From sequence record PQ571289: 64,000 bases of DNA; one strand, written 5' to 3'. Below the pieces are notes generated by a model that was not told the DNA's origin, searched no databases, and saw only the letters and a program-made list of their open reading frames with translations. The DNA comes from Escherichia phage EF1-1. This document shows positions 39,773 to 40,366 of this stretch, in pieces (position 1 is the stretch's first letter; every line of letters begins with the position of its first letter). Both the position numbers and the translations under genes were made by a program.

Positions 39773-40366
39773 TTACCAAGGAATATCATCTTCTTCCAAT
39801 CTGGCATCTACTTGAGGTGGACGTGGAACCTTAACCTCTTTCACAAAACGAAGATATGGGAAACGTGTAGCAATTTTAATAACATGTTTGGCATCTTCTC
39901 TAACATCTTTGTGCAAGAAGCAGATCCCTGTTTCCAAGGTTGTTTCAAAATCTTTAGAATAATAACAGTCCTTCCCATCAAATGCAGCCTGGCAGATGGA
40001 CAGATCGAACTCATTTAGAAAGGTTGTCATTACGCTTGGTTCCATAATCATAAGGTTGCAAAGCTGACCATCACGTTCAAACTCAAAAACGTGTTTAAGA
40101 CCAGTAACACCTTCATAATTGTCAGAAGCCTCTTTGTTTCCTAGTTTACGAATATTGGTTCCCATTAAAGCAGATGCAATTAATCCTTGTATTTGTTCTT
40201 CAGTCTGATGTGCAGGAAGGGATGTATAGAAATCAAGATCACGTCCAACAATATCAAGAATACGCCAATCACGAACAGCACCGCCAGCCAATACAGAATT
40301 AGGATCAGCGATCTTTAACACGGTAAGAATTTCTTTGGCAATATTGATTTGTTTTGATTTAGTCAT
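39773..40366 (-). CDS. Small nucleotidyltransferase (Pol-beta superfamily, CCA/poly(A)-polymerase-type head) with SSB-tail-like C-terminus
   Basis: 'GGAVRD'-x9-'DLD' matches the class II NTase head motif; C-terminus '...LEEDDIPW' resembles the SSB acidic tip. Confidence 0.45.
   Translation of the reverse strand: MTKSKQINIAKEILTVLKIADPNSVLAGGAVRDWRILDIVGRDLDFYTSLPAHQTEEQIQGLIASALMGTNIRKLGNKEASDNYEGVTGLKHVFEFERDGQLCNLMIMEPSVMTTFLNEFDLSICQAAFDGKDCYYSKDFETTLETGICFLHKDVREDAKHVIKIATRFPYLRFVKEVKVPRPPQVDARLEEDDIPW

Follow-up and report, generated by a model that had tools for sequence, protein, structure and literature searches.

A minimal, probably Gad2-related nucleotidyltransferase in a coliphage replication module ends in a tip resembling that of SSB

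Gene organization of the locus

We analyzed a 64,000-nucleotide stretch of Escherichia phage EF1-1 (sequence record PQ571289), referred to as a whole as the window, which is part of a phAPEC8-like coliphage (Phapecoctavirus, Stephanstirmvirinae). A small gene on the minus strand (39773..40366, including the stop codon at 39773-39775) encodes a 197-residue, Gad2-like nucleotidyltransferase (NTase) of the class II Pol-beta type, and this protein ends in a short motif, DDIPW, which resembles the C-terminal tip of SSB, a protein that binds single-stranded DNA. In the open reading frame (ORF) listing, the gene starts with ATG and has a ribosome-binding site, GGAG, 9-12 nt upstream of the start. The ORF belongs to PHROG 10174 (“nucleotidyltransferase”, E 5e-62). 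The surrounding 3.2-kb region is 98% identical to Escherichia phage iGC_PHA_EC001 and is matched by 98 phage records. In GenBank records, the gene is already called “nucleotidyltransferase” or “putative tRNA nucleotidyl transferase / poly(A) polymerase”; its assignment to an enzyme is therefore not new. None of the annotations and publications that we found mentions the tip, and both the tip and its recurrence in relatives appear to be unreported.

The catalytic motif A (residues 26–47, LAGGAVRDWRILDIVGRDLDFY; 40226..40291, minus strand) contains the GG turn, Arg32, Trp34, and the metal-binding Asp43 and Asp45, and within it GGAVRD and DLD are separated by nine residues (residues 28–45). A second segment, FDLSICQAAFD (residues 120–130; 39977..40009, minus strand), was found by family alignments and hhalign to be a signature common to the family and Gad2, where it reads FDFTVCMGAFDF. 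The folded part is followed by a disordered, proline-containing linker (residues 179–192, KVPRPPQVDARLEE; 39791..39832, minus strand), which was delimited by its AlphaFold2 confidence and low conservation, and by the tip itself (residues 193–197; 39776..39790, minus strand), which consists of two acidic residues, Ile, Pro, and an aromatic residue with a free carboxylate. The C-terminus reads ARLEEDDIPW and is followed by TAA. A first-pass annotation of the window had described a 197-residue protein with GGAVRD-x9-DLD and an EEDDIPW end, exactly as read from the ORF. It missed the GenBank annotation, the relation to Gad2, and a gene that lies between the NTase gene and its SSB-like neighbor.

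The NTase gene lies in a replication module whose upstream anchor is a gene for a family A DNA polymerase of 1110 residues with an intein-like insert (41572..44904, minus strand; Pfam DNA_pol_A E 2e-11, GenBank annotation, and synteny). Downstream are the intervening gene, which encodes a 130-residue protein (39335..39727, minus strand; PHROG 16560, E 4e-76), and the gene for a 295-residue SSB-like protein (38431..39318, minus strand). The SSB-like gene, which starts 455 nt from the stop codon of the NTase gene, is thus the next gene but one.

Fold and active site of the nucleotidyltransferase

An AlphaFold2 model of the NTase, built from an alignment of 47 sequences, had a predicted local distance difference test (pLDDT) score of 87.2 and a predicted template modeling (pTM) score of 0.81, with a folded core up to approximately residue 178 and a disordered tail. 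In a Foldseek search of the PDB with this model, the top 32 matches were all class II CCA-adding enzymes or poly(A) polymerases, including E. coli poly(A) polymerase and the CCA-, CC-, or A-adding enzymes of Bacillus, Thermotoga, Aquifex, human, and Arabidopsis. The query-normalized template modeling scores (TM-scores) were mostly 0.5–0.57 over approximately 155–215 aligned columns, which cover the head and the start of the neck; the targets are 344–517 residues long, and the target-normalized scores were 0.22–0.31. The family profile also matched a solved CCA-adding enzyme (6ibp) with E 0.0015, over motif A alone. At the sequence level, the Pfam PolyA_pol model gave 14.2 bits, which is below its gathering threshold of 23, and the NCBIfam CCA models gave approximately 13 bits against cut-offs of approximately 290–440 (13.4 against 438.8 for TIGR02692). 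These scores are below threshold; it is the predicted fold that confirms the class: in the model, the core (residues 1–178) is a class II head with a stub of the neck. The first-pass annotation had proposed a truncated class II Pol-beta enzyme, to be checked by structure prediction and comparison with CCA-adding enzymes, and the fold, the Foldseek matches, and the profile match bear this out.

A single-sequence search of the PDB returned only irrelevant weak matches, such as the PYL1 receptors, and no PADLOC defense-protein model matched the NTase at E values up to 0.1. We also considered the CD-NTases, MenT/AbiEii, and the MNT component of HEPN-MNT systems. These were rejected, with no PADLOC match and with class II enzymes as the structural neighbors instead.

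Ala27, Gly28, Gly29, Arg32, Trp34, Asp43, and Asp45 are invariant among the 47 family members, down to 21% identity. The NTase is therefore very probably an active enzyme, as judged from this conservation.

The structural neighbors raise the question of whether the NTase, as a CCA-adding enzyme or poly(A) polymerase of minimal size, repairs tRNA 3′ ends damaged by host defenses or tails RNAs. Its nearest solved structures are indeed CCA-adding enzymes and E. coli poly(A) polymerase I (PAP I), and its motif A fits the pattern GGxVRD...DxD. In addition, its closest complete relative (OR437326.1, 148 kb) has 10 tRNA genes, an RNA ligase, and a phosphoesterase. However, the tRNA- or RNA-binding body and tail domains are absent, since the folded core stops near residue 178, and the low target-normalized TM-scores agree with this. 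The RRD sequence of motif B is also absent; at the equivalent position, which we assigned by reading the sequence together with the fold match, the NTase has NEFDLSICQA, of which only Phe120 is conserved in the family. In the region of motif D (EDxxR), Glu157-Asp158-Ala-Lys-His161 lies at a similar distance from motif A as in class II enzymes, but the Glu-Asp pair is conserved only in the close clade, and the wider family keeps His/Tyr161 and Lys164. Moreover, in the closest complete relative CCA is already encoded by each of the 10 tRNA genes, which led us to reject CCA maturation of phage tRNAs, and the tRNA cluster, the RNA ligase, and the phosphoesterase lie approximately 40 kb from the NTase gene. 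Other relatives occur inside the replication modules of podophage genomes of approximately 47 kb. A CCA-adding enzyme proper was rejected on the grounds of the missing domains, the missing RRD, the poorly conserved EDxxR, and the curated thresholds that were not reached. The repair of tRNA 3′ ends, which the first-pass annotation had offered as one of its explanations, thus did not hold up, and we regard any tRNA- or RNA-tailing role as very improbable.

In OR437326.1 (our contig L013), the RNA ligase and phosphoesterase genes (L013 29792-31277) are a few kb from the cluster of 10 tRNA genes, and a gene for a Sir2-like NAD-dependent deacetylase is located at L013 81-881. These three products could serve further host-conflict or tRNA-repair functions.

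The C-terminal tip

The tip was compared among 10 tip-bearing sequences, down to 58% identity. The fraction of the majority residue was 0.96 in the tip, 0.80 in the folded core, and 0.49 in the linker, which varies in length through insertions and deletions. In the AlphaFold2 model, the last two blocks of 10 residues had pLDDT values of 56 and 40, and residues 190–197 were below 50. Asp193, Asp194, Ile195, and Pro196 match the SSB pattern D-D-(D)-[IL]-P-F, and only the last residue differs, being Trp instead of Phe. Trp197 directly precedes TAA, so that the chain ends in an aromatic residue with a free carboxylate. The terminal Trp is invariant in the clade, and allowing for the variable positions the ending is D-x-(I/F)-P-W. 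The NTase of the metagenomic contig L016, which has only 34% identity, still ends in FPDDIPW.

The motif is also specific. Among 567 stop-to-stop ORFs of at least 40 residues in the window, an acidic run followed by a terminal IP[FW] occurs only in the NTase and the SSB-like protein. The same two proteins are the only ones with an acidic IP[FW] end among 2378 ORFs of at least 30 residues in the 148-kb closest relative. The tail of the small subunit of ribonucleotide reductase (RNR) is a classic docking peptide, and a looser scan of this genome for acidic-aromatic ends recovered it as a positive control. At the nucleotide level, the tips of the NTase and the SSB-like gene have only GATGATATTCC in common, for which codon preference alone would suffice, and this comparison is uninformative. 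We also considered co-variation of the NTase tip with the SSB tail and rejected it: the SSB-like protein of Klebsiella phage KP2025 ends in DDDIPF, yet the tail of its NTase differs.

The SSB-like neighbor

An alignment with PDB entries 1eqq and 4mz9 shows that the SSB-like protein has exactly the C-terminus of E. coli SSB in its last 12 residues (EPPMDFDDDIPF; nt 38434-38469). The protein belongs to PHROG 4477, and the SSB PHROGs match its tail. The Pfam SSB model did not match it. It is called SSB-like on the basis of its GenBank annotations and of its kinship with the Vequintavirus family of Bas52_0087; the homologue bas48_0087 from this family ends in FDDDIPF. According to a preprint, the Bas52_0087 family is SSB-like with two predicted oligonucleotide/oligosaccharide-binding (OB) folds. 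A published proposal for Bas52_0087, the trigger of DRT10, is that it uses its tip to interfere with the exonuclease SbcB/ExoI of the host. The first-pass annotation had placed the NTase gene next to the phage SSB gene; the gene and its tip stand, but the protein has no Pfam SSB match and the 130-residue ORF intervenes.

In Bas62 (Escherichia phage JohannJBalmer), the orthologue of the SSB-like protein (L001 5026-5973) has DFDDDIPF followed by 15 residues, APIGLQYGRNFLHCF. Because of these extra residues, the tip does not form the end of the chain. DDIPW is missing from the NTase of this phage.

A large family of small NTases and its relation to Gad2

An exhaustive profile search recovered 1050 cluster representatives at E values up to 0.001 and 330 at E values up to 1e-10, and the family size is given as at least 1050 clusters at 50% identity. 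The family is large and phage-restricted, and nearly all members have 170–240 residues. Where the context was available, the genes are found in modules for phage DNA replication, repair, or nucleotide metabolism. In all Stephanstirmvirinae examined, the NTase gene lies between the family A DNA polymerase gene and the SSB-like gene. Elsewhere, family members are located directly past PolA in another myophage-like contig, overlapping the 5′-3′ exonuclease gene in a 47-kb Vibrio podophage, directly past an ATP-dependent DNA ligase gene in a 33-kb contig, near a ligase gene in ICP1, and among RNR and ThyX genes. The exception is a clade (P0011, P0018, and P0021) found among small early-type genes, away from replisome genes.

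Gad2 is the second anti-Gabija protein described by Yirmiya et al.; it has approximately 400 residues with an NTase domain predicted by AlphaFold, and phage SPbetaL7 needs it to escape Gabija. A review of February 2026 still lists its mode of action as unknown. Small NTases beside primase-helicase genes in other phages have been annotated as the Gad2 family. Several members of the present family (P0009, P0015, P0016, P0028, and others) have the Pfam entry PF26128 “Gad2” on record among precomputed matches, and P0009 is 60% identical to the NTase of the window. The relationship to Gad2 is therefore already implicit in Pfam. A local Pfam scan gave no PF26128 match, even for members that carry it on record.

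We took the verified Brevibacillus Gad2 from Supplementary Table 10 of Yirmiya et al., collected its homologues, and built an alignment; PF26128 is on record for all 120 of the listed homologues. With hhalign, the NTase family matched this alignment with 88.7% probability and E 2.5e-6 over 115 columns, and it matched the single verified Gad2 sequence with 78% probability. The alignment pairs AGGA(V)RDW...DLDFY with AGGTITSLF...D(L/V)D(V/I)Y and FDLSICQAAFD with FDFTVCMGAFDF, and nothing aligns past Gad2 residue 137. In an AlphaFold model of Gad2 (pLDDT 81.6), the first ~135 residues show the same order of helices and strands as the NTase, and 17 viral structural neighbors in BFVD are common to the top-50 lists of both models. 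Taken together, these alignments argue with moderate confidence that the minimal NTases are remote relatives of the N-terminal domain of Gad2.

Recurrence of the tip

Seven of 171 non-redundant family representatives end in P[FW], whereas 0.27 would be expected. The endings are DDIPW, NDFPW, DDIPW, NDIPW, DDGIPF, KPIPF, and ETPF, and the tip recurs in P0018, P0062, P0162, and P0200. In a rough neighbor-joining tree, P[FW] tips occupy at least five positions, beside sisters without tips. The tip NDIPW of P0162 occurs in an unrelated phage gene context, after a DNA ligase gene. Looser acidic-aromatic ends are found in additional members, for example EEFEF, PWDEEF, and SDDDF.

Similar tails are found in Gad2 proteins. 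Among the 120 Gad2 homologues, 22 have an acidic run and then PF within the last eight residues (for example, DEELPF, DDILPFS, EDDDPFA, and SDDAPF), against an expectation of 0.4 from internal windows or 1.5 ± 1.2 from shuffling of the last 25 residues. SSB tips read DDDLPF in Gram-positive and DDDIPF in Gram-negative bacteria. The Firmicute Gad2 tails have LPF in six cases and IPF in none, and the tip-bearing small phage NTases mostly use Ile. The tail variants may thus match the version of the SSB tip of the host, as far as these sequences indicate.

In the Gad2 homologues (P0201-P0320), a conserved REVPxEEY(K/E)xW block is often followed by variable acidic extensions that end in LPF, DPF, APF, or CPF, frequently with 1–4 additional residues, often Glu or Asp. 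Acidic-aromatic tails are also found on other phage proteins. In Vibrio phage 1.253.O, a 232-residue protein of PHROG 862 (L004 759-1457) ends in PEPSTDDGEDIPW, which is a DIPW tip; its gene is located 1.5 kb upstream of the NTase homologue, which is itself tipless. On the contig encoding P0162, a 5′-3′ exonuclease (L017 413-1486, PHROG 107) has the acidic-aromatic tail DDSDALDDFDDF, likely another docking tail in the replication module of P0162.

The first-pass annotation had called the end of the protein an SSB-like tip; the motif is conserved on a variable disordered linker and recurs in distant relatives, which supports this view. From its conservation, its survival through divergence, its specificity, and its recurrence, we judge on sequence grounds that DDIPW is a functional short motif. 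The tail need not dock on SSB partners to be functional. It could act as a degron, or as an autoinhibitory acidic tail on the nucleic-acid groove of the NTase itself, or it could be a product of chance. The acidic tails of SSB, T4 gp32, and T7 gp2.5 fold back on their own nucleic-acid grooves. In some strains of Streptococcus mutans, the LPF at the C-terminus of SsbA marks the protein for ClpXP-dependent degradation, but E. coli ClpXP did not degrade GFP-DDDLPF in that study. Turnover or autoinhibition could be of use, since the gad2 product of SPbetaL7 is toxic on expression and gp22 of Emajogi is cytotoxic when highly induced. The terminal Trp and the several tipless orthologues would also agree with such a role. 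However, chance is excluded by the conservation and recurrence of the tip, a generic acidic tail would need no invariant D-x-(I/F)-P-W ending, and AlphaFold2 leaves the tail undocked on the core, with the low pLDDT given above, although this last point is weak evidence. We therefore consider these explanations improbable as a group.

Divergence of the NTase and its neighbors

Each of the five comparisons shows much faster divergence in the NTase than in the replication genes beside it. Against phiWec190, the identities of the DNA polymerase, the SSB-like protein, the 130-residue protein, and the NTase were 85, 80, 68, and 63%, respectively; against phiWec186, they were 92, 80, 66, and 59%. In the same order, they were 77, 81, 38, and 34% for L016, 75, 63, 55, and 37% for Bas62, and 75, 71, 50, and 38% for KP2025. 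Such fast divergence is as expected for a gene in conflict with the host. The identities of the 130-residue protein track those of the NTase, and it, too, is evolving at a far higher rate than the polymerase and SSB-like genes. The synteny of its gene is kept in Bas62, KP2025, phiWec186, phiWec190, and L016, and it has no match in Pfam, the PDB, or PADLOC. It may be a partner of the NTase in a two-gene cassette. This fast co-divergence is, like the tip, a new observation.

These rates bear on another possible role, that of a replisome accessory. The tip would dock the NTase at the site for the SSB-like tip on the phage polymerase or primase-helicase, much as the gp2.5 and gp4 tails of phage T7 do on gp5, and the enzyme would add nucleotides to 3′ ends of DNA or primers during replication or end processing. 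The conserved synteny between the DNA polymerase and SSB-like genes across the Stephanstirmvirinae, the family members beside PolA, 5′-3′ exonuclease, DNA ligase, and RNR/ThyX genes, and the restriction of the tip to the SSB-like protein and the NTase in the genome of the closest relative are all consistent with this role. However, an identity of 34–38% where the polymerase retains 75–77% and the SSB-like protein 63–81% is unusual for a core part of the replisome. The tip is missing in Justusliebigvirus and KP2025 despite their conserved polymerase and SSB-like genes, and the P0011 clade, from a different phage group, lies away from replisome genes. Moreover, the tip of the SSB-like protein is identical to that of host SSB, which points to host partners. 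A replisome accessory is the main alternative to the explanation that we favor, and we think it unlikely.

Proposed mechanism

In SSB-interacting proteins, the last Phe of the SSB tip is bound in a hydrophobic pocket, and its carboxylate by a basic residue; the pocket of PriA is an example. The best reading of the NTase sequence is recruitment via this interface. Specifically, we propose that the tip is a mimic of the SSB tip that docks a probably anti-defense NTase onto a protein with an SSB-tip pocket, and we assign this proposal a rough probability of 0.45. It is built on the predicted fold, the conserved catalytic residues, the family membership, the conservation and recurrence of the tip, the gene context, and the fast evolution.

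In the proposed mechanism, the disordered linker of approximately 14 residues would present DDIPW as a short linear motif that mimics DDDIPF of host SSB. The terminal aromatic residue and the free carboxylate would enter the pocket of an SSB-interacting protein, and the NTase would thereby be tethered to a tip-reading protein where single-stranded DNA is processed. Candidate partners are nucleases or helicases of the host that belong to the SSB interactome, helicases or nucleases of defense systems, or the phage's own replisome. The NTase would then transfer a nucleotide to a nearby 3′-OH of DNA or RNA or to the partner itself. We infer host takeover or anti-defense as the most likely biological role, rather than CCA addition to tRNA. 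It is favored over core replication because of the fast divergence of the NTase, its kinship with Gad2, and the host-identical tip of the neighboring SSB-like protein.

Several observations weigh against this proposal. In the active site, the likely third carboxylate, Glu95, varies in the wider family (Glu, Gln, Asn, or Ser). As for the tip, every SSB tip known to us ends in Phe, and that of the NTase ends in Trp. The tip is also missing in the orthologues of Justusliebigvirus and KP2025; it is therefore dispensable in some lineages. Only five of the 22 Gad2 tails end exactly in PF, whereas canonical binding of SSB tips uses the terminal carboxylate. Neither of the two experimentally used Gad2 proteins has a PF tip, which means that anti-Gabija activity as such cannot depend on the tip. 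As for the relation to Gad2, PF26128 is not on record for P0001, the cluster with 96% identity to the NTase, and a pairwise BLASTP comparison of the NTase with Gad2 was insignificant, with approximately 17% identity. Gad2 also has a C-terminal part of ~250 residues with a conserved REVPxEEY end, which is absent from the 197-residue NTase. Because this part is missing, the pairwise similarity is insignificant, and the small family has Arg32 and Trp34 as invariant residues of its own, the NTase of the window is not a Gad2 orthologue. Finally, the position of the gene in the replication module fits a role in replication equally well.

A broader proposal is that Gad2-family NTases in general are targeted by imitating the SSB tip, which would disarm end-sensing immunity and would explain the mechanism of Gad2. 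The tails would be IP[WF] in phages of Gram-negative hosts and LPF/PF in Firmicute prophages. They would deliver the enzyme to a tip-reading helicase or nuclease of the host or its defenses, such as ExoI, RecQ, RecJ, or the UvrD-like GajB of Gabija, where the NTase would add a nucleotide to this protein or to the DNA end held by it. We consider this generalization doubtful. If it were true, these proteins would form a new class of “addressed” anti-defense enzymes.

What appears to be new is the SSB-tip-like motif on an NTase and its recurrence in both minimal NTases and true Gad2 proteins, apparently matched to the host. Small relatives of Gad2 are widespread in phage replication modules, and the recurrent tail offers a concrete and inexpensive experimental handle, as a peptide for binding studies and as a five-residue deletion for genetics. 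Through this handle, the partner, and through the partner the substrate, of the whole family could be identified, and the tip is a direct experimental entry into the mechanism of Gad2-type enzymes. To our knowledge, the phage proteins that exploit the SSB interaction hub have so far been SSB-like proteins and recombinases; if the proposed docking is true, these enzymes would join them.

Additional features of the region

A bidirectional terminator-like hairpin with a 10-bp stem and T runs on both strands (38376..38399), identified by a consensus scan only, lies just past the SSB-like gene, and the minus-strand transcription unit of the NTase gene probably ends there. It separates the SSB-like gene from a convergent tail-fibre-like gene (35702..38374). 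Apart from this clear hairpin, the scan for promoters and terminators did no better on the region than on shuffled sequence.

A free-standing HNH endonuclease gene (40955..41545, minus strand) lies between the polymerase and NTase genes. It is present in phiWec186, Bas62, and KP2025 and absent from phiWec190 and L016. Many Phapecoctavirus records cover 80% of the 3.2-kb query, with this gene missing. It looks like a mobile homing element. The insert in the DNA polymerase comprises approximately 245 residues (window positions ~42424-43155, minus strand) and is absent from the polymerase of Bas62. It starts with Cys, contains the LAGLIDADG-like sequence FLEGFLIADGY, and ends in TGN before a Cys; therefore, it is probably an intein with a homing endonuclease. 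The Pfam Intein_splicing match (E 0.0085) was under the cut-off.

Three records labeled “Campylobacter phage B15”, “A150”, and “Acinetobacter phage vB_AbaM_ABPW7” (MG065650.1, MG065639.1, and OP562383.1) are 97–99% identical to E. coli Phapecoctavirus/Justusliebigvirus in this region. Their host labels are probably wrong, or the isolates were contaminated.

Comparison with known systems

The best structural matches to the NTase are the class II CCA-adding enzymes and PAP I (PF01743 head; 1miv, 3aql, 3h37, and 6ibp). They have in common with it motif A, the helix before motif A, and a similar spacing from GG to DxD. However, the NTase has half their length, lacks the body and tail domains, RRD, and a conserved EDxxR, falls under all curated thresholds, and is found in a DNA replication context.

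Gad2 of Bacillus phage SPbetaL7 and of a Brevibacillus laterosporus prophage is, like the NTase, phage-encoded. Both have a Pol-beta-type domain with AGG-x(13)-DxDxY and FD(F/L)(S/T)(V/I)C. Where the NTase family has an invariant GGAxRDW, Gad2 has GGTITSLF, and anti-Gabija activity has been shown for the Bacillus and Brevibacillus Gad2 proteins only.

The tip of E. coli SSB, MDFDDDIPF, and that of the NTase both form the very end of the chain and follow a disordered, proline-containing linker, and they share the pattern of two acidic residues, Ile, Pro, and an aromatic residue. The NTase tip differs in its last residue, which is Trp, and in the absence of the DF of MDFDDDIPF, and it is carried by an enzyme instead of a single-stranded DNA-binding protein. 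The Bas52_0087-type protein of a related E. coli myophage has a conserved FDDDIPF tip, and the SSB-like protein of the window is its homologue. It is an OB-fold single-stranded DNA-binding protein and not an enzyme; the likeness therefore concerns the SSB-like neighbor and not the NTase.

In phage T7, gp2.5 and gp4 have acidic, Phe-terminated tails that share sites on the polymerase gp5. This is a precedent for two proteins of one replication module with similar acidic, aromatic-ended tails that compete for a single docking surface. The sequences are unrelated, and the T7 tails dock on the phage polymerase, whereas the tip of the SSB-like protein described here is identical to that of host SSB, and host partners are therefore likely.

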